A stretch of 64,000 bases of DNA from Octopus vulgaris (taxonomy: Eukaryota), in assembly GCA_951406725.2 (NCBI GenBank), contig OX597815.1:2356001-2420000 (forward strand), written 5' to 3'. Position 1 is the stretch's first letter. Each line of letters starts with the position of its first letter. Shown here one piece after another: positions 1,962-39,060 of this stretch. A program made the position numbers and the translations under genes. The notes below the pieces were generated by a model. The model worked only from the letters and a program-made list of their open reading frames with translations, was not told the DNA's origin and did no database searches.

Positions 1962-2252
1962 CATCTGTTTGTTGTCTACACCACCTGTCTTCGTCTTTTG
2001 TTTTTTTTGTAAATTCTCCCTATATATATAGTAAATCCCCCTCCCCCAAAAAAACAAAGAACAAACAAGAAAAAACAGCAACTCGAGGATGTGGTACATG
2101 TAAAGTATTAGCAGACGATCAGAGAAGGAAAGAAAGATGGTTTAATGTTTCGAGCAAGAGGAACGGGAGACGGAGGAAAGTCCAAGAGAAAAGGAAGACG
2201 GGGAGAGAAATCGCCAACCATCCACATGTGGTTATACAAATACATATCCATT

Positions 2253-2349
<97 letters not shown>

Positions 2350-2408
2350 CTGTCTATCTATATATATATAAATAATGCGGGTGACTTATTAGCAATTTGA
2401 TAACCTAT

Positions 2409-2439
<31 letters not shown>

Positions 2440-2521
2440 TACATATATATACACACACATATACATGTGTATATATATGTATATGTATATATATATATGT
2501 ATGTATATATATATATATATG

Positions 2522-2560
<39 letters not shown>

Positions 2561-2645
2561 GTATATATGGATACACTATCCGGCATTGACACACGCACAC
2601 CTAATATTCCTAGATTTTCATCATATGCGGTCTCTATGTCCGTTT

Positions 2646-2735
<90 letters not shown>

Positions 2736-2895
2736 AATACATTTCCACCACAGCACCGAGCATTTGTAGCTGTACAGAAAGCTTATCTTTATTTACTTTT
2801 GTTGTTTTTACTTCGTAAGTGTCTGATAATCTCATTGTGTTAGGCAACAAGTATAAAAGAAATAAACAAGTTTGTGTTGTGTGTGTGTATGCGTG

Positions 2896-2932
<37 letters not shown>

Positions 2933-3612
2933 GTATGTATGTGTGTATGTATGTATATATATGTGCTTATACATGTACGTTTTGTGTGTGCGTATGTATG
3001 ATTGCACGCATGTGTGTGGGCGTGCGTGGTTACAAATGGATTTGTACTTTTCATAAGCAAACTTGGATAGGCACCAAGCCGAAAGCCTATATCACTCTCC
3101 CTTGAGAACGTACGAAGTCTGGTGTATTTTATAAACAAAACGGCAGTTTGTCGTCCATTTGCAAAAGCTGTTAAACCAAACGAATGTTATTTATGAGGAT
3201 CGTCCATTTTTCTCCGGCACACACCACCAGCCCCACCAACGCATGCGTGTGTCAACTACGTTCATAGCTGCGTTTGTTTGTAACTTGCATATTAATTTCA
3301 TGATTTTGTGCTTCGTTGTGTTGGGCAGATTTTAGAAGTATTTCGGAGAGACGTCAACACTCGCACAAAACGTCACAAGTGTTAAAACATGAATAAATAA
3401 ACGCACATACATACATTTAGCCAACCTACTTCAAAGGAATATACACGAGCCATATGGAGATAGATCAACATTGATATCTATGTGCATATCTATATCCAGA
3501 TATCATCTCTCTCTTTCTCCTTCTCCCTCACTCCCTATCTTTCTCTCTGCCTCTCTGTCTTTCTTTCCCTCTCTCTCTAACTGTAAATGTATTTATGTAT
3601 ATATATATATAA

Positions 3613-3992
3613 CTAGCAGTATCGCCCGGCATTGCTCAGGTTTGTAGGGAAATAACTATAAAGCATTTTTAGAGAGTTATAACCAAAAAATAGCAAAAAA
3701 ATGGAAAACAATTATGGTAAATTTTTTTTGAGAGTAAAAAAAGGTGGAGTTGCGTCCCCTAGACAGTTTGCGGTTTGTGTTTCTAATTCTCGACCCCATG
3801 TCGAATTTATCGATTTTTTTCAGAAGTGGGGGAACTTTTCAAAATTTTCGCTGCATTAGTTTTGAATTATGACATTGGGCTATGTGTGTGTCAAGTTTCA
3901 TCAGAATCGGTTGAAAGCCGTGGTCAGGGTGAGGGTACAAGCAAACAGACACACAGAAACACGCACAGACAAACTGCCGTTTATATAGAGAG
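3613..3992 (-). mobile_element. Non-autonomous Helitron-like element
   Basis: The minus-strand 3' end matches the CCCG-hairpin...GATACTGCTAG end of the copy at 37022-37417. The internal segment is shared with 7390-7520. Confidence 0.7.
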
Positions 3993-4334
3993 AGATATAT
4001 GTATGTGCGCGTATGTATGGGTATTTGTGTATACATGTGTAGGTGCAAACGTGTATTCGTGCACACACCAAGCACTTTCACTCTTCCCCCAAAAGAACCA
4101 AATTCTCACCAGCACCCTACCCCCTAAGCCTACACACACGCGCGGACGCGCAAGTTGACGCTTGTTTTTAGGCAAAAAACCCTCCAAAGAATAACTTTCT
4201 GGTGAAGGATTACTCAATACATTTTTGTACATGTTTAATAAATTGATACAAAGAAAAGGGTGTGAGCGTATGGATGGATGTGTGTCGTGTATATATATAA
4301 ATATCAAAATAAGCAAAAGGATATCAAGGAGTGA

Positions 4335-4420
4335 TGCAGTACGGCCGTTTCAAGCGGCTCCATTTAATTGAACAATGCAATCATTACATCAATTTAAATG
4401 CAGTGCTATCTTCAGCTGCA
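4335..4420 (-). ncRNA. Type I hammerhead ribozyme motif
   Basis: Minus strand reads TGCAG-CTGAAGA-TAGC...GCTT-GAAA-CGGCCG-TA-CTGCA. Stem I is TGCAG/CTGCA, stem III is palindromic, and the cleavage triplet is GUA. Confidence 0.75.
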
Positions 4421-9051: not shown

Positions 9052-9265
9052 CATTCGGTTGTGCCAATTCTTTGCACGGGAAACCTGCCTTTGTGTGGCG
9101 TGTTTCCCCATTTTGTAAATTCGTCTTCGGCTTTCCTCGCCATTCTCTGCTTTGAGCATGGCGACTTCAAAGCCATGAAGTCGTTCTTCGAGAAGAACGG
9201 TGGTCTCCTTGGCAACGCTTACGACGTGTGTATTCCCTCCCCTCCCCTTCCCCACAGCTTCACGA
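9052..9265 (+). repeat. About 210-bp direct repeat, copy 1 (copy 2 at about 11866-12080)
   Basis: ACATTCGGTTGTGCCAATTCTTTGCACGGG...CCCCACAGCTTCACGAG is near-identical at both positions. Confidence 0.9.
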
Positions 9266-9384
9266 GAGAGGGAAAGAAGGGGAGGAGAAACACAGGTGCA
9301 GGTGCGAGCATGGACGCCGACACACGAAGAATTGGAAGAACCCAGACGACAGCTTCACAGTCAACCACTTCTATGGACAACTCT

Positions 9385-11632
9385 GCCACGACCACCACCA
9401 CCATCACCACCACCACCACCACCACCATCACCACCACCATCACCACCATGACCACCACCATCGCCGCCACCATCACCACCACCATCGCCGCCACCACCAC
9501 TACCACCATCACCATCACCATCACCACCACCATCGCCGCCACCACCACCACCACCACCATCGCCGCCACCACCACCACCACCATCACCACCACCACCATC
9601 ACCATCACCATCTTCACCACCATCACCAACTCCACCACCACCAACACCACCAACTCCACCACCACCACCATCACCACCGACACCACCACCACCACCACCA
9701 CCACCACCACCACCACCACCACCACCACCACCATCACCACCATCACCAACTCAACTACCACCACCACCATCACCGCCAACTCAACCACCACCACCATCAC
9801 CACTGCCACCATCACCACCACCACCATCATCACCACCATCATCACCACCACCACCACCACCACCATCATCACAACCACCACCACCACCGCCACCACCACC
9901 ACCACCACCACAACCACCACCACCACGACCACCAACACCCCCCACCATCACTACCCCCACCACCGCCACCGCCACCGCTACCACCACCACCACCACCACC
10001 ACCATCACCACCATCAGCACCGCCATCACCACCACCATCACCATCATCACCACCATCACCAACTCCACCACCACCACCACAACCACCACCACCACCACCA
10101 CAACTACCACCACCACCACCACAACCACCAACTCCACCACCACCACCATCACCACCGCCACCACCACCACCACCATCACCACCACCACCATCGCAGCCAC
10201 CACCACCACCACCATCGCCGCCACCACCACCACCACCATCACCATCACCATCATTACCACCATCACCAACTCCACCACCACCAACTCCACCACCAACACC
10301 ACCAACTCCACCATCACCACCGCCACCACCGCCACCACCGCCACCACCACCATCACCACCGCCACCACCGCCATCACCACCACCACCACCACCACCACCA
10401 CCACCACCACAACCATCACCACCATCAGTACCGCCATCACCACCACCATCACGATCATCACCACCACCACCACCAACTCCACCACCACCACCACCACCAC
10501 CACCACCACCACCACCACCACCACCACCACCACCACCATCAGCACCGCCACCATCACCACCACCACCATCACCACCATCACCAACTCCACCACCACCACC
10601 ACCACCAACAACTCAACCACCACCACCACTATCACCATTGCCACCACCACCACCACCATCATCACCACCACCACCACCATCACCAAAACCACCACCACCA
10701 CCACCACCACCATCACCACCATCAGCACCGCCATCACCACCACCACCACCACCACCATCACCACCACCCCACCACCCACCGCCACCGCTAACGCCGGCGC
10801 CACCACCACCACCACCACCACCACCACCACCACCACCACCACCACCACCACCACCACCACCACCACCACCACCATCACCACCGCCACCACCACCACCACC
10901 ATCACTACCACCACCATCGCAGCCACCACCACCACCACCATCGCCACCACCACCACCACCACCATCACCACCACCACCATCACCATCACCATCATCACCA
11001 CCATCACCAACTCCACCACCACCAACTCCACCACCACCACCACCACCAACTCCACCATCACCACCATCACCACCGCCACCACCGCCACCACCCGCCATCA
11101 CCACCACCACCACCACCACCACCACCACCACCACCACCATCAGTACCGCCATCACCACCACCATCACCATCATCACCACCACCACCACCAACTCCACCAC
11201 CACCACCACCACCACCACCACCACCACCATCACCACCACCACCACCACCACCACCACCACCACCATCACCACCATCACCAACTCCACCACCACCACCACC
11301 ACCAACTCAACCACCACCACCATCACCATTGCCACCACCACCACCACCATCATCACCACCACCACCACCACCACCAAAACCACCACCACCACCACCACCA
11401 TCACCACCACCACCACCACCACCATCAGCACCGCCATCACCACCACCATTATCACCACCACCACCACCACCACCACCACCACCATCATCACCACCACCAA
11501 TGCCACCGCCACCACCATAACCACCACCACCACTACGACCCCCCCATCATCACCCCCACCACCACCACCACCACCACCACCACCACCACCACCACCACCA
11601 CCACCACCACCACCACCATAACCAACACCACC
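9385..11632 (+). repeat. Degenerate (ACC)n microsatellite, about 2.2 kb, with higher-order internal duplications
   Basis: ACC units with ATC/GCC/AAC/TCC variants; blocks such as ATCAGCACCGCCATCACC recur. Confidence 0.95.
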
Positions 11633-11865
11633 AATTTCCGTGTGTCGGCGTCCAGGCTCACACCTGCACCTGTGAAGCGTTGTCATGGAGACCACCGTTC
11701 TTCTCAAAAAATTCTAAACTTCGTATTTTTGTAGAATCTGTCAAAATAAAACATTTTTTTCTCTTGGCTTTATTCAGAAAATTCTAGAGTTTCTAAGATA
11801 TTTGCTGTTTTTTCTTCTGCAATTTCAACTAATCAATGACGTCTATTGCGCAACAACCAATAAAC

Positions 11866-13695: not shown

Positions 13696-13925
13696 ATATG
13701 TATATACGTATATATGTGTGTGTGCCTCTACGTATGTGTGTGTGTGTATTTTAATAAGAATGTATAAATACTCGAAGAGAAGACCATCAATAATACTTCT
13801 AACATGCAGGAAAGGGCAGTCAGAACCCAAACCACGGAAAAAGTCTTAAGGCACGCTGTATAAACATATATTTTACGTCTTATGATTTTACTATAGTGGT
13901 AGTAAATTATTTAATAATTTTTACC

Positions 13926-13959
<34 letters not shown>

Positions 13960-14055
13960 GGTAAAAATTATTAAATAATTTACCACCACTATAGTAAAAT
14001 CATAAGACGTAAAATAGGCGCAGGAGTGGCTGTGTGGTAAGTAGCTCGCTAACCA

Positions 14056-16273
14056 GACATGCGCAGTTAGTCGGTTGCTTCTTGTTGAGCTAGAGTGGAC
14101 GTGAGTCCAACTAAAGAAAAAAGACCAAAAACGGAAAGTTGTCGAGGTAAGTGATTTTGTTTATTGTGAGTTGGGCATAATTTATTGCGTGCCAATTATT
14201 ATTTCAGTAGGTTGTGTCCAACTCTGAGACAATTTCGCCTGCGCTAGGCGGCTGCCGTTTTTGTGTTCATTGAAAAAAAAAAAAAAAAAAAAGAAAAAAC
14301 AGTGGAGGGGCGTATACTCAGAATTCAATACAGTTACTGTTAAAATTACCGTTGGCAGTAACCAGTGCTGTGTTTGAGTTTGCTGAATTTATTCCCTTGT
14401 CAGAGTACTTCGCAAGAAAAGTATAAAAATAAGCCACTATTGGATTACCTTTCGGACCCATTTTTGTGGAGGTTGTGTTGCAGTTGCGGCGTTCCAGGTT
14501 CAACCCAGGCCGGGAGTACCGCAGAATATTTTTGCTGTGTTTTTTCTGTTTATTAACTTTCTTTTGAACTTCATTTACCCCCCCCCCTTTTGTTTTTTCT
14601 TTATTGCGACTTTCCGTTAATTTCTTCCCTTCTGTTGTGCTTTCTCCTTTTTGTTTTCTCAAAAATCTATCAAATTTATTTAGACTTTTGAACTTTTTTC
14701 TTCCTGCTTTTGAGTCTAATTTGAATATATTTTTTAAAAAACATGGCAATGAAAAATAACAAAGTTTTGGAGTGGGAAATCATACCACCCAAAAAGTGGT
14801 TGAAGGACCGTGAAGATAGGACGGTGGTGTTGAGAACCTACTCCAAGGCACTTGACACCATCGCCCTATTCGAAAAGACGGCAATTGAGGAGGAGTTGGA
14901 GGAGTATTTGCCAACAATTAAATTCATTTCCAGGGGTGTCAAATATGGAACGGTGTGGTTGCTGTTTGACACCCCTGAAGAGGCTTGCAAATTTGCTAGC
15001 GAACCCTTGGAGGGTAAGGAAATCTTATTCCTGCCCACTTACAAAAAAAAGAAATTGATAAAAGCTTGGATCTGCGGACTGCCACCCGACATAGAACCCG
15101 AGTGGATAGAGGAGACTATCCGCCGGGGTCTGGGTGACAGCGAAACTAAGCTCCTCAATGTAAAAGTTCTCCCTGCGGCTGCTTGGGTTGGCTCGAATGC
15201 AGTTTTGACCCTGTGGACCCAATCAGCCAATCTGGATTTTCCAGATTTTTTGAAAATGGCCGGGTGCAGGTACCCGGTGATGCTTGAGGGTCGCCCCCCT
15301 AAGTGTCATCGGTGCTTGGAGTCCGGCCACATAAAGAAGAACTGTCCTCGGGAACAAAATAGGATCCCGGAACAGTTAAGTAAAACCCCTCTAGAAGAGG
15401 GAACGATAACGGCCGAGAAAGCAGAGGACTCCTCAAGCAGAGGCCGAAAGAGGAAGGTGAGCAACAATGGGTGCTCACCAAAGGATAATAGGGATGAGGA
15501 GAGGAGGGCGAATCTTCCAGCCACGGAGGAGACGCACCATCCCTCAGTTGAAAAGGGGAAAAAAAAAAAAAAGAAAAAGAGGAAGAAAAACGGGACGTTG
15601 CCGGCTGTCAGTGTGGCACCGGAATGTCGCGGAACTACGTCGGTTGGGGTTGTGCCACCGACAAGAGAAGGAATACCGTTGGCGGAAACTGTGCCGCCAA
15701 CGAAAGAACTGAATGTATTGGTCCTCTTCTATAGAGGAGGAGAAATTGAAAAAGTGATGGAAGAGCACTACAAGGGAGCACCTTTAGCCTTCACACAGGA
15801 CCCCGAATGGCCTCCGCAGGTAGCTGTGGAGGCCGTGGCGTTCGACGTGACGCTAGGGCTAAAGGAGCTCAATGAAGACTATAACTTGGTCCCGGGCGAC
15901 GCGAACTCGGAACTTGACTACGTTCTGAGGGAGGCGTGGTTGATGGTGGAGGGCGCGGGCACAAGCTATTTCGAGGACGATATGTATTATTAGTAATGGA
16001 CTTAAGTCCAAAAATTGAAAAATTGTAAGAGGATTAATACCTCGTTTTGTATTGCTAAAATTGGAAAAATTGTAAGAGGTTTAATACCTCGTTTCGTGTT
16101 AATCTTTTTTAAAAAGAACAATGTTTTAGAGAAGCAAAAGTCGGCGGGCGCTTTCTGTCTTCTCCCATCCTTATCATCTTTCTTTCATTATCATTCACCT
16201 CATTAATGTCCTCGTCCAGCCCGCAAAGCTAACTTAATCTGTGTACTGCTTTTATGGCAAATGTTTTGAAATA
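14056..16273 (+). mobile_element. ORF1-only non-autonomous non-LTR retroelement (Tx1/L1-derived, HAL1-like architecture)
   Basis: 17-bp TSD AAGTAGCT(C/T)GCTAACCA at 14039-14055 and 16274-16290, a terminal AATAAA at 16270-16275, one ORF, and no RT. Confidence 0.8.
14743..15993 (+). CDS. Gag/ORF1p-like nucleic-acid-binding protein (RRM-like N-terminus, CCHC zinc knuckle, basic tract)
   Basis: Uninterrupted 416-aa ORF. EGRPPK-CHRCLESGHIKKNC fits CX2CX4HX4C. ICGLPPDI and YPVMLEG resemble Tx1/L1 ORF1. Confidence 0.85.
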   Translation: MAMKNNKVLEWEIIPPKKWLKDREDRTVVLRTYSKALDTIALFEKTAIEEELEEYLPTIKFISRGVKYGTVWLLFDTPEEACKFASEPLEGKEILFLPTYKKKKLIKAWICGLPPDIEPEWIEETIRRGLGDSETKLLNVKVLPAAAWVGSNAVLTLWTQSANLDFPDFLKMAGCRYPVMLEGRPPKCHRCLESGHIKKNCPREQNRIPEQLSKTPLEEGTITAEKAEDSSSRGRKRKVSNNGCSPKDNRDEERRANLPATEETHHPSVEKGKKKKKKKRKKNGTLPAVSVAPECRGTTSVGVVPPTREGIPLAETVPPTKELNVLVLFYRGGEIEKVMEEHYKGAPLAFTQDPEWPPQVAVEAVAFDVTLGLKELNEDYNLVPGDANSELDYVLREAWLMVEGAGTSYFEDDMYY

Positions 16274-16418
16274 AAGTAGCTTGCTAACCAACCACATGGT
16301 TCCGGGTTCAGTCCCACTGCGTGGCACCTTGGGCAAGTGTCTTCTGCTATAGCCTCGGGCCGACCAATGCCTTGTGAGTGGATTTGGTAGACGGAAACTG
16401 AAAGAAGCCTGTCGAATA

Positions 16419-16459
<41 letters not shown>

Positions 16460-16725
16460 TTGTGTGTCTGTGTTTGTCCCCCTAGCATTGCTTGACAACC
16501 GATGCTGGTGTGTTTACGTCCCCGTCCTTAGCGGTTCGGCAAAAGAGACCGATAGAATAAGTACTGGGCTTACAAAGAATAAGTCCCGGGGTCGATTTGC
16601 TCGACTAAAGGCGGTGCTCCAGCATGGCCGCAGTCAAATGACTGAAACAAGTAAAATAGCAAAAGAGTATATATATATATATAACAAAGTGAAGTTGTAA
16701 GGTACCGCGCGAGTGGAATTATATA

Positions 16726-19355: not shown

Positions 19356-19970
19356 CTATAAGTGAGGGTGGATATTGTCTTTGAGATCTTGAAGACGAAG
19401 GTCCCGAGTTGTTCTATCAGACACTATTGTGCAGATCCTTTTTGCCAAATTGAAAGGGATATTTACTTTGATGTGTTTCGGGTGGCATGAGTTAAAGAGG
19501 AGATATTGTTTTGAATCAGTTGGTTTACAATAAATGTCAGTTATGATTTCATTGTTAACTTTTTTTATCATGATGTCTAAAAATGGGAGCTGTTCTTTGC
19601 TATATTCCATTGTAAATTGAATGTTATTATTTATATAATTTAGTGTTGATTTGAAATCCAAAAGTTTGTCGATGTTCTCCTTCCAGATGATAAAACAGTC
19701 ATCTAGGTATCTCTTCCAATTTTCTCTTATGGAGAGGTAAAATGGGTAACCATATTTCTGAAGAGATACTTCATATAAGGTGAATTCAAAACAACCCATT
19801 ATTAGGTTCGCAAGAACAGGGGCTGCTTTCGTCCCCATAGCAATTCCGCATTTCTGACGATAGTATGTCTTATCAAATAGGAGATAATTGTTCTGAAGTA
19901 TAAATTTTAAGGATGCAATGATAAAGATCTTGTTTATGCGTTCCAGGAGTACTTCGGGGTACTTTTCCAA
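19356..19970 (-). pseudogene. Penelope-like reverse transcriptase fragment
   Basis: ORF track 204 aa with the YLDD catalytic motif and the PLE thumb motif SCHP. Confidence 0.9.
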
Positions 19971-24788: not shown

Positions 24789-24951
24789 AGGCGCAGGAGT
24801 GGCTATGTGGTAAGTAGCTTGCTAACCAACCACATGGTTCCGGGTTCAGTCCCACTGCGTAGCATCTTGGGCAAGTGTCTTCTGCTATAGCCCCGGGCCG
24901 ACCAATGCCTTGTGAGTGGATTTGGTAGACGGAAACTGAAAGAAGCCTGTC

Positions 24952-34868: not shown

Positions 34869-35059
34869 TGTGTGTGTGATGAGTTACTCATTGCGTTTAT
34901 AATAATTATGTGTGTTAATCACATCATAATATAAATGATATTTTTACTCCATTGAAACAGCTGTCGAGAACAATCACGTTACGCATCCTATGAAATTTAT
35001 GCATTTCTGCTTTTGACTATTACCTCTCTCCTTGTATACATTCATTCCTACACACACAC

Positions 35060-35104
35060 GCACATACATACATACATACATACATACATACATACATACA
35101 TACA

Positions 35105-35138
<34 letters not shown>

Positions 35139-35292
35139 CATACATACATACATACATACATACATACATACATACATACATGCATACATACATACATACA
35201 TACATGCATACATACATACATACATACATACATACATACATACATACATACATACATGCATACATACATACATACATACATACATGCATACA

Positions 35293-35326
<34 letters not shown>

Positions 35327-36032
35327 CATACATACATACATACATACAAACATACATACATACATACATACATACATACATACATACATACATACATACA
35401 TACATACATACATACATACAAACATACATACATACATACACACATACATACATACATACATACATACATACATACATACATACATACATACATACATACA
35501 TACATACATACATACATACACACATACATACATACATACATACATACATACATACATACATACATACATACATACATACATACATACATACACACATACA
35601 TACATACATACATACATACATACATACATACATACATACATACATACATACATACATACATACATACAAACATACATACATACATACATACATACATACA
35701 TACATACATACATACATACATACATACAAACATACATGCATACATACACACATACATACATACATACATACAAACATACATGCATACATACACACATACA
35801 TACATACATACATACATACATACATACATACATACATGCATACATACATACATACATACATACATACATACATACATACATGCATGCATACATACATACA
35901 TACATACATACATACATACATACATACATACATACATACATACATACATACATGCATGCATGCATACATACATACATACATACATACATACATACATACA
36001 TACATACATACATACATACATACATACATGCA
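35060..36032. repeat. (TACA)n microsatellite, about 1 kb
   Basis: Direct inspection. Confidence 0.98.
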
Positions 36033-36523
36033 TATATTCTATTCTTTCCTTTTGTTCTCTTATTCGTCTCAGCTATGCAGCTGCGGTCATGCTGGAGCAC
36101 CAGTGTGGTTTTGCTGCTTTCCTGAGGCTGGGGTATTTCACATTACCACTTCTGCCTGTGCCTTGTCCCAGCTGTTGGTCCATTTGGTGTCTGAGGGAGT
36201 TTGATTCCGCTGCCCTGGACTCATGCCCTCATCTTATACCTCGTACCGGGTCGTTGGTACATCTGATATTGGGGAGAGGAAGATGTCTAGTATCTTTTTG
36301 AAGACATCTATGTCCACAATATGTAGATTTCTTAATTTCTGTGGCAGGGGATTGAAGAGCTGTGGGTCTTCCAACCCCAGGCTCTTGCAGAAACTAGTCC
36401 TGAATTTAGATGGAGTGGATGGTACCTTTGGTGCAATACAAAGGCGTCCACTTCTGGCATTTGTATAAGATTCAACGTCGAAATTAGGTACTAACCTTTC
36501 TAGAGTTTCTCATTTGTAGATTA

Positions 36524-37878: not shown

Positions 37879-39060
37879 ATGTTAGTTAGTTAGTTAATTT
37901 GGCTCAAAAGCAAATAGCAAGGCCATGTAGGGGGACATGGAGTTAAGTACAGGGTGGTGTTCATGTAAAGAGTTCAGGCCACTTGAGGTCCAGGGAGGCT
38001 TTGAACAAAGCGGTCGTCGGCATCTTCACCATCTCGTCTGGCAGCTTGTTCCACGGATCCGCAACCCGGATGGAGAAAGCTCCTCTCCTTCGATTGAGAT
38101 GAAATCGTCGCAGGTAGAGCTTTTCGGAATGACCCCGCAGCCGACGCTCTGGAGCAGGAGTGAAGAACAGCTCTTTCGAGAGGTTACACTTTCCGCTTAT
38201 GATGTTGTGGGCGAGAATGAGATCACCACGGCGGCGGCGTTTTTCAAGAGAATAAATGTCGAGCGTCCTCAGCCTTTCTTCGTAGGACAAATTTTTGAGA
38301 CCATGAACCATGCGGGTAGCCAGCTTCTGGACTCTTTCGAGATGCTGTATGTCTTTGAGGAGATAAGGAGAAGAGGCTTGAATCCCATACTCCAGTATGG
38401 GTCTCACCAACGTGACATAGAGTGGTAGGAATATGGCTGCTGTGAGCATTCCGAATGACCGTCGAATCAAGAACAGAATTCCGCGTGCTTTGTTGGCAGC
38501 ATGGATGCACTGGGCCGAAGGCGAAAAGGAGGAATCCACCAAGATACCCAGGTCCTTTACCTGATCGGTCCTCTCCAGCAGCAGACGACCCGGCTCGAAA
38601 TCAAGTTGAGTTGCAGGAGGAGAGCCAACAGGCAGATGACAGCACTTTGACACGTTCAGACACAGGTCCCAATCGTTAGACCACTTCCAAATTTGGTGGA
38701 GGCATCGACGAAGATCCTCTATATCACCGCGAGGAGCGACCAGTTTGATATCGTTGGCAAATAGAAGGGTGTGTTGCGTGAGGTCGTCGGGCAAGTCATT
38801 TATGAAGACTAAGAACAACAAGGGCCCAAGCACAGAACCTTGAGGCACGCCACTGCTCGCATTGGAGACGTCGGACCGCGAACCATTAACTTGGACTTGG
38901 AAGGAACGATCTGAGAGGAAGGCACCAACCCATCGTACAATATCTGGATGGAAACTATATGCTTGAAGCTTGACAAGTAATAGGCGGTGGTTTACCGAGT
39001 CAAAAGCTTTGGCAAAGTCCAATAAAACGATGTCAACAGCATCACTATCATCGAGGATGC
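37879..39060 (-). mobile_element. 5'-truncated CR1-clade LINE with (TAAC)n tail
   Basis: RT ORF plus a short 3' UTR ending ...CCAAATTAACTAACTAACTAAC. Confidence 0.92.
37961..39022 (-). CDS. CR1-clade reverse transcriptase C-terminal part (truncated; catalytic motif reads FAND)
   Basis: DFAKAFDSVNH, GVPQGSVLGPLLF, KDLGI, LRGH and WNKLP motifs in an open 353-aa frame. Confidence 0.9.
   Translation of the reverse strand: MDFAKAFDSVNHRLLLVKLQAYSFHPDIVRWVGAFLSDRSFQVQVNGSRSDVSNASSGVPQGSVLGPLLFLVFINDLPDDLTQHTLLFANDIKLVAPRGDIEDLRRCLHQIWKWSNDWDLCLNVSKCCHLPVGSPPATQLDFEPGRLLLERTDQVKDLGILVDSSFSPSAQCIHAANKARGILFLIRRSFGMLTAAIFLPLYVTLVRPILEYGIQASSPYLLKDIQHLERVQKLATRMVHGLKNLSYEERLRTLDIYSLEKRRRRGDLILAHNIISGKCNLSKELFFTPAPERRLRGHSEKLYLRRFHLNRRRGAFSIRVADPWNKLPDEMVKMPTTALFKASLDLKWPELFT

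Follow-up and report, generated by a model that had tools for sequence, protein, structure and literature searches.

The window analysed here, a 64,000-nt stretch of Octopus vulgaris DNA (contig OX597815.1, positions 2,356,001 to 2,420,000), contains a SINE whose head is interrupted by a 2218-bp insert with one long open reading frame, ORF1 (Table 1). An exhaustive longest-repeat search at both ends placed the insert between 17-bp direct repeats, AAGTAGCT(C/T)GCTAACCA, identical at 16 of 17 positions, in agreement with a preliminary description that had reported an insert of this length and a 17-bp duplication with one mismatch. Because four uninterrupted SINE copies in the window carry the 17-mer once, with the two halves joined seamlessly, we take the repeat to be a true target-site duplication. 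The terminal AATAAA takes its last two As from the start of the right duplicate, which therefore measures 15–17 bp depending on how the shared As are assigned, and the 3′ terminus of the element reads …GAAATA. Of the earlier claim of a terminal AATAAA without poly(A), the missing tail was borne out, but the hexamer belongs only in part to the element. The repeats listed for the insert include neither LTRs nor terminal inverted repeats; a long target-site duplication without terminal repeats of the element's own is the signature by which we recognised target-primed reverse transcription (TPRT).

The host SINE is well preserved on the 3′ side of the insert, where positions 16274–16412 are 97.8% identical to another copy at 24812–24950. 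The insertion point falls between A-box-like and B-box-like motifs, both read by eye. ARAGORN predicted no tRNAs in the window, Rfam returned no tRNA among its 16 matches to the intact SINE head, and the folded head gave no cloverleaf; a tRNA origin of the SINE is suggested by the two motifs, and tRNA-derived octopus SINEs are cited in the part of PMC4758252 available to us.

Table 1. Features of the interrupted SINE and its insert (positions in the window).
Feature	Position	Strand	Basis
5′ part of host SINE head, A-box-like motif at 14027–14037	14017..14038	+	alignment to four intact copies; motif by eye
Left target-site duplicate, one mismatch to right copy	14039..14055	+	repeat search
ORF1-only retroelement, 2218 bp	14056..16273	+	repeat search; 30/30 bins covered in three DNA runs
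5′ leader, 687 bp: 3-aa uORF, A-run, T-rich distal half	14056..14742	+	sequence
ORF1, 416 aa	14743..15993	+	translation, uninterrupted
First RRM-fold domain, aa ~20–101	14800..15045	+	high-confidence model and fold matches
Second RRM-fold domain, aa ~103–184	15049..15294	+	high-confidence model and fold matches
CCHC zinc knuckle C188-C191-H196-C201	15304..15345	+	weak Pfam match
3′ UTR, 280 bp, with 47-bp-period tandem pair at 16010–16100	15994..16273	+	repeat listing
Right target-site duplicate	16274..16290	+	repeat search
Host SINE remainder: B-box-like motif at 16305–16315, body, internal (TA)n, tail; end approximate	16291..16667	+	alignment

The leader, three base pairs shorter than the 690 bp first reported, holds a single upstream ATG, which opens the uORF, and presumably contains an internal Pol II promoter; the short 3′ UTR was as described. 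The insert has no further stop-to-stop frame longer than 153 aa, which is too short for a reverse transcriptase (RT) or endonuclease, so the earlier account of an uninterrupted 416-aa CCHC protein with neither enzyme stands. A frame scan of the insert found no ORF2 remnant in the 3′ UTR. A 3′ stem-loop was unsupported, since the 3′ end folds no better than shuffled sequences (z +1.05).

The sole Pfam signal in the ORF1 protein was zf-CCHC at aa 187–202 (E 0.0077), which lies under the Pfam cut-off. An AlphaFold2 model built on a 20-sequence alignment was confident over residues ~11–210 and disordered over 225–372. Foldseek matched the model to the tandem-RRM proteins hnRNP A1/A2 and HuD (best E 4e-5), and in VIA-align single RRMs fitted each of the two predicted domains (Z 7–9, rmsd 2–3.5 Å, 67–88 residues). 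The VIA-align Z values were middling yet consistent. Model confidence was low in the C-terminal 99 aa, for which the protein atlas gave no usable match. On the predicted fold, the protein is a Type I LINE ORF1p of RRM-RRM-CCHC architecture. RRM plus CCHC defines Type I ORF1p and is consistent with Tx1 elements of non-mammalian animals, without being confined to them (PMC5203782, in part); the feature is present here and, not being exclusive to Tx1, does not by itself assign the clade. The ‘Gag’ label of the preliminary description was abandoned, and with it a retroviral or LTR-retrotransposon identity, because residues 20–184 form two RRM folds, followed by the CCHC knuckle, rather than a capsid, and LTRs are lacking. 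HAL1 proper, a mammalian-type L1 derivative with a Transposase_22 ORF1p, was also rejected: Transposase_22 matched none of the 20 aligned members (E up to 1) and the fold is Type I.

To place the insert in a family, contigs of four sequencing runs (X1, X2, X12 and X19, 4 of the 24 listed) were aligned to positions 14031–16298, a stretch that adds 25 nt of SINE to either side of the insert. None of the listed runs is recorded as RNA; X2 may be of that type. The three DNA runs X1, X12 and X19 yielded 4354, 4071 and 2215 contigs, respectively, with all 30 bins covered in each. Some singleton pieces look identical in X12 and X19, in length as well as in their differences; the three organism labels therefore stand for closely related material and amount to little over one lineage. 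Single 5′-leader contigs reached depths of 3509 (X12) and 432 (X19), compared with 38–79 and 4–11 for the other listed pieces; contig depth is not equal to copy number, and we drew on it neither for ranking segments of the element nor for inferring a 3′ bias. The coverage suggests at least tens of near-identical full-length copies. In X1 the contigs fell into likeness classes of 950, 1233, 1212 and 959 from 99%+ down to <90%, and because likeness spreads so evenly, several sub-families or layers must exist. The description of the element as young therefore applies to its sub-lineage, which differs by 0.7% from a sister copy, but not to the multilayered family.

That sister copy is a 2083-nt contig of run X2 (record 25), which aligns to 14048–16100 with 14 substitutions (0.7%) and 30 gap letters relative to the window copy and runs through the stop codon into 107 nt of the UTR seen in the window. 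It is one contig of depth 14 that ends at 16100, before its own 3′ end, and it may be an allele of the same locus. Divergent sub-families branch inside ORF1: beyond 15486, 8 and 7 contigs carry loose ends of 216–225 nt. Manual translation of two loose ends stayed in frame and gave sequence resembling a relative 64% identical to ORF1. Further loose ends behind 16226 represent variant 3′ ends.

These data bear on whether the insert arose by deletion from a two-ORF LINE, in which case the high coverage would come from an autonomous family that shares its ORF1 and 3′ end. High coverage alone is silent on whether ORF1 and the 3′ end are joined, no listed contig piece spans the entire element, and the branching within ORF1 would also suit such a family. 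The X2 contig, however, joins the stop codon directly to the UTR, and depth past the stop lies in the thousands at 16002–16017 and 16101–16105 in the DNA runs, with no long loose end among the rows listed; those just past the stop are 10–32-nt variants of the UTR tandem unit. Only 0.01–0.03 of the aligned contig sequence in the DNA runs continues into unlike sequence, and the UTR, as noted, holds no trace of ORF2. We give this explanation a slim chance. A dominant two-ORF form at ≥80% likeness is unlikely, with room for a rarer or more distant partner among 1381 other loose-end rows, and a one-off internal deletion, the case the preliminary description had named against itself, is unlikely given thousands of contigs (2215–4354) per DNA run over the whole length. 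Given that three DNA runs cover its whole length, that ORF1 is followed by this UTR in the X2 copy too, and that it encodes neither RT nor endonuclease, the insert very probably belongs to a multicopy ORF1-only family, as had been proposed for a non-autonomous element.

The comparison of dN/dS among copies that had been suggested was run as synonymous counts. Seventeen of 28 ORF differences (from the best 40 of 255 rows) were synonymous, against an expectation of 22% over all changes (p 1e-5) or 34% for transitions only (p 0.003); the synonymous share was 13 of 19 in residues 1–215 and 4 of 9 beyond, again in the best 40 of 255 rows. Purifying selection on ORF1 during the spread of the family is therefore supported, on those best 40 of 255 rows. 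Changes common to the window and X2 copies numbered 12 synonymous and 6 replacement, whereas those private to the window copy numbered 1 and 4, a split that fits selection in the source lineage followed by neutral drift after insertion, although the contrast falls short of significance (Fisher p 0.13). The changes found in the X2 copy alone (4 synonymous, 1 replacement) sit poorly with simple neutral decay.

An intact ORF with a synonymous bias could also mark a retroposed, domesticated host gene of the ZCCHC3 or L1TD1 kind, the alternative offered in the preliminary description, and the atlas neighbours of the protein include ZCCHC3 RNA-binding-domain clusters (score 0.91). Against this stand the very many diverged copies, which make the alternative unlikely, and the predominance of replacements among the window-private changes (1 of 5 synonymous). 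Moreover, 12 other cephalopod-type relatives share 23–64% identity with ORF1 and include only two pairs above 40%, so that they resemble separate element families and not one orthologue set. We attach scarcely any weight to domestication.

Sequence searches with the ORF1 protein gave 2 and 63 matches. The nearest relative is 64% identical and the majority of the others 23–33%. Those named to species (29 matches looked up, plus P0068) are cephalopod, mostly Octopus: Octopus sinensis, O. vulgaris, O. bimaculoides, Argonauta hians and one cuttlefish, which would by itself point to an Octopus as the likeliest source of the window. Some lie on 1.7–1.9-kb contigs, others are annotated as uncharacterised octopus genes, and one is fused into an integrase-like gene model. 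None of the 29 relatives scanned carries an RT or endonuclease domain (E up to 0.01).

The search for an autonomous partner was extended to gene models in which ORF1 and ORF2 are fused. None was found among 537 candidates (proteins of 729–2080 aa), and a second search over proteins of 1228–3505 aa gave 1 in 7386, a distant, non-cephalopod gene model from a pseudoscorpion. This model carries an endonuclease and an RT nearest L1 ORF2p, and its ORF1-like match (185–331; hhalign probability 91%) lies ~1800 residues from the endonuclease, which makes the link loose. No partner was found in the window, and no O. vulgaris L1-Tx1 family could be linked to the element in the protein searches or the window. 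Candidate partners do exist, since O. vulgaris has 80 L1-Tx1 families, 13 of them recently active, according to the part of PMC13282606 available. P0001 found no relatives among 590 candidate stretches of metagenome contigs, and searches were likewise empty for the 3′-junction pattern in metagenome contigs, the 5′-junction pattern in viral contigs, the SINE pattern in prokaryote genomes, and P0030 (0 of 489) and alignment A2 (0 of 81) in viral contigs. The lone P0001 match in viral contigs (L001, 1 of 21), a 562-aa frame that looked phage-portal-like by eye, was dismissed as chance.

Evidence on target choice came from the flanks of other copies. When at most two mismatches are allowed, 7 of 128,000 window positions match the 17-mer, or ~5 per 100,000, and two of these are the target duplicate pair; there are ~6 target sites per 64 kb in the window. 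The X2 copy starts with 24 letters foreign to the window that end in the target sequence, with one extra T, immediately before the first base of the element. Both of the 5′ flanks that could be read (2/2) thus carry the target, and a second insertion used this site even should the X2 copy prove allelic to the window locus. Of the 14 nt upstream of the X2 target, 10 match the last 14 nt of the element, compared with 2 of 14 for the SINE sequence upstream (shuffle p 0.018; 178 of 127,972 window 14-mers, 0.14%, equal the match). The X2 flank reads like a tandem stack: a related element's 3′ end, the duplicate, then the element.

In the three DNA runs, 125 (X1), 125 (X12) and 86 (X19) contigs reach past the 25-nt SINE ends on the two sides. 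As controls, the X2 contig, with its loose part extending 7 nt beyond the start, was absent from this overreach count, X2 gave no SINE-only contig, and the first bin of X1 was not inflated. Judged from the count rather than from the flanks directly, the overreaching contigs appear to cross real element–SINE junctions. Among the 18 rows listed for the DNA runs, no loose end falls at either terminus of the element, where contigs joining it to unique sites may be too short to register.

The same family might have weak or no target choice, as in an ordinary HAL1-like element, and have struck a SINE because SINEs are ubiquitous. SINE heads are dense in the window (12 matches in 64 kb, the interrupted copy included), and junction contigs at unique sites, overlapping the element only briefly, may escape the rows listed (1381 others). 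We nonetheless think it unlikely, though with some residual weight, that the site is incidental: the X2 copy, too, starts directly after this target, where a 17-mer found ~5 times per 100,000 positions would seldom lie, and 86–125 contigs per DNA run extend over the SINE flanks. Target specificity has been set at more than 20% of flanks in the same repeat (PMC4494074, in part); the junction count here has no denominator, with 1381 loose-end rows outside those listed, and random insertions may be common.

Many element–SINE junction contigs would also arise if the mobile unit were a composite of SINE and insert that had multiplied after one ancestral insertion, through duplication or through read-through retroposition via the SINE tail. 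This has a very slim chance, in our judgement. The X2 copy has the duplicate without the 5′ part of the SINE upstream, 23 runs of ≥4 T in the insert, the first at 14155, would halt Pol III read-through, and the element sub-families have diverged far more than the host SINE has from its empty copies. We consider a preference of the element for this position in the SINE head probable. The earlier suggestion that the element may target the SINE gains from the second copy and the junction-crossing contigs, and this support is indirect.

Our preferred reading, which we hold with reasonable confidence, is that the insert represents a multicopy, protein-coding, non-autonomous octopus LINE, a ‘half-element’ without ORF2 that is mobilised in trans by an L1/Tx1-type partner nicking the SINE between its A- and B-box-like motifs. 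A Tx1-type partner is likely, given the ORF1 type, the length of the duplicate and the targeting of a repeat. A long duplicate, the absence of terminal repeats and a LINE ORF1p point to TPRT by a borrowed ORF2p. In this scheme a full-length copy would be transcribed from its own leader, and ORF1p would coat its own RNA and co-assemble with the ORF1p/ORF2p of the autonomous partner; the protein of ORF1-only elements is thought to multimerise with the partner's proteins (PMC5786205, in part). The target of APE-type LINEs is set by the endonuclease (PMC1919474, in part), and a sequence-selective partner endonuclease would here nick the SINE head at GGT|AAG, on the bottom strand (CTT|AC), at the duplicate's left edge. 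The A-rich RNA end could then pair with the two terminal Ts of the primer to start reverse transcription, which would account for a tail-less AATAAA running into the target. A top-strand nick 17 nt downstream would yield the duplication, and the duplicate, by retaining the site, would allow further copies to stack in tandem. The SINE would serve as a harmless and abundant landing site, each insertion parting its A- and B-box-like motifs by 2.2 kb.

Both ingredients of this system, ORF1-only LINEs and Tx1 elements that target repeats, are known separately; the combination is specific. The non-autonomous LINEs known to retain ORF1 are HAL1 (L1 clade), Ag-Sponge (CR1 clade) and HeT-A (Jockey clade) (PMC5786205, PMC5753468), and ORF1-only LINEs arise repeatedly among Drosophila telomeric elements (PMC13534243); as far as these sources were available to us, their elements and ours share one ORF1, no RT or endonuclease, multiple copies and mobilisation in trans. 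The octopus element differs in its predicted molluscan Type I RRM-RRM-CCHC ORF1p, its lack of poly(A) and its apparently fixed SINE-head target, HeT-A being site-restricted as well, to chromosome ends. In the available part of PMC5786205, the list of ORF1-only LINEs names no Tx1-derived case.

Target-specific LINEs of the Tx1 clade include Tx1L (in Tx1D), Keno (U2), Kibi and Koshi (microsatellites), Dewa (tRNA-Leu spacer) and Tx1-Mar (Mariner-N4), and the targets recorded for the clade comprise Tx1D, U2, U5, 5S, satellites, microsatellites, Mariner, Harbinger and LTR elements and a tRNA spacer (PMC4494074, PMC3706591, in part). They resemble the octopus element in a multicopy-repeat target, a long duplicate, a Type I ORF1p and, it appears, tandem stacking, but they are autonomous with two ORFs, none is named in those parts as having a SINE-head target, and the octopus element has no RT by which to place it in a clade. 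SINEU-3 of crocodilians is non-autonomous, thought to be mobilised by Tx1, flanked by one host transposon in 90% of cases and arranged in tandem around a 16-bp duplicate (PMC4494074, in part). Non-autonomy and, apparently, tandem copies around a duplicate of similar length are common to both, whereas SINEU-3, a short derivative of a non-coding RNA, lies in a DNA transposon and the octopus element, lodged in a SINE, encodes ORF1p. Dada DNA transposons also insert at set positions of tRNA and snRNA genes, in some cases inside the A box (PMC8869645, PMC3706591, in part), but use a DDE transposase, make 6–7-bp duplicates and work by an unrelated mechanism. By analogy, the octopus element would resemble HAL1 and HeT-A in its dependence and Tx1-Mar and SINEU-3 in its siting.

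In a literature search limited mainly to freely available papers, we found no ORF1-only Tx1-type family, no SINE-head target and no account of this octopus family, which is not described in the available parts of PMC9115989, PMC5753468 and PMC8869645 and may already be catalogued in a repeat library such as Repbase or Dfam. With this element, ORF1-only LINEs, of which few are listed, would gain a fourth origin, probably Tx1-type, and sequence-specific LINEs a new target class, the SINE head. Its significance lies in transposon biology, with no new mechanism, and in a caution for annotation, as relatives of the octopus ORF1 are filed as uncharacterised genes. Why a non-autonomous element retains its own ORF1p should be testable here, with element and partner countable at one site, because the family combines a recent sub-lineage that is still intact with a landing site that would be neutral and a target that appears to be fixed.

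A further, tentative and rather doubtful reading is a three-tier system, in which an autonomous Tx1-type LINE would have an endonuclease recognising the promoter region of the commonest SINE, and the half-element, its ORF1p under selection, would ride along. If this is true, most copies should lie at one SINE-head nucleotide, often in tandem and each disabling a SINE promoter, and several deeply diverged octopod ORF1 families, whose members lie on 1.7–1.9-kb contigs, should also be ORF1-only, which would make the half-element a recurring strategy.

Alignment of contigs from DNA sequencing runs to the ORF1-only retroelement showed departures from its 3' UTR at 16226 into a variant terminal segment, in 14 contigs of run X1 and 10 contigs of run X19. 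The X19 consensus of this segment retains the motif ACTGCCTTTATGG at its end. This terminal motif is a candidate for a recognition signal common to the element and its partner, the supposed autonomous LINE that would mobilize it in trans.

Distant relatives of the element's ORF1 protein (P0005, P0009, P0017, and P0018) are borne on contigs of 1.7–1.9 kb, and two clusters of such relatives comprise four similar-sized contigs apiece. These sizes hint weakly at additional ORF1-only families, the hint being weak because contigs of this kind are frequently short anyway. In the Octopus sinensis gene model P0003, about 46 residues of a close ORF1 relative are joined to an integrase-like protein, a fusion that is probably an annotation artefact spanning nested elements.

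A 148-bp palindrome (13869–14016; 74-nt arms, 99% complementary, with a (TA)n center) runs right up to the host SINE at its 5' end, and may be read either as a MITE-like element or as a fold-back duplication. Among the other repeats in the window, the seemingly Penelope-like fragment had no match in a Pfam search, and the long ORFs in the two arrays are spurious products of the tri- and tetranucleotide repeats.

Other repeats in the window
Feature	Position	Strand	Remark
Trinucleotide array, very long	9175–11686		CAC/CAT-type
Retroelement fragment	19356–19838	−	Penelope-like by eye
Tetranucleotide array, very long	34974–36301		CATA-type
Retroelement fragment	37961–39031	−	Weak RT match at 38501–39031

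Within ORF1, eight contigs of run X12 and seven of X19 diverge from the element at 15486 in the same alignments, extending for ∼220 nt. These loose ends represent a divergent sub-family, in frame and resembling the ORF1-related protein P0002, whose branching at this position offers a possible entry point toward the autonomous element.
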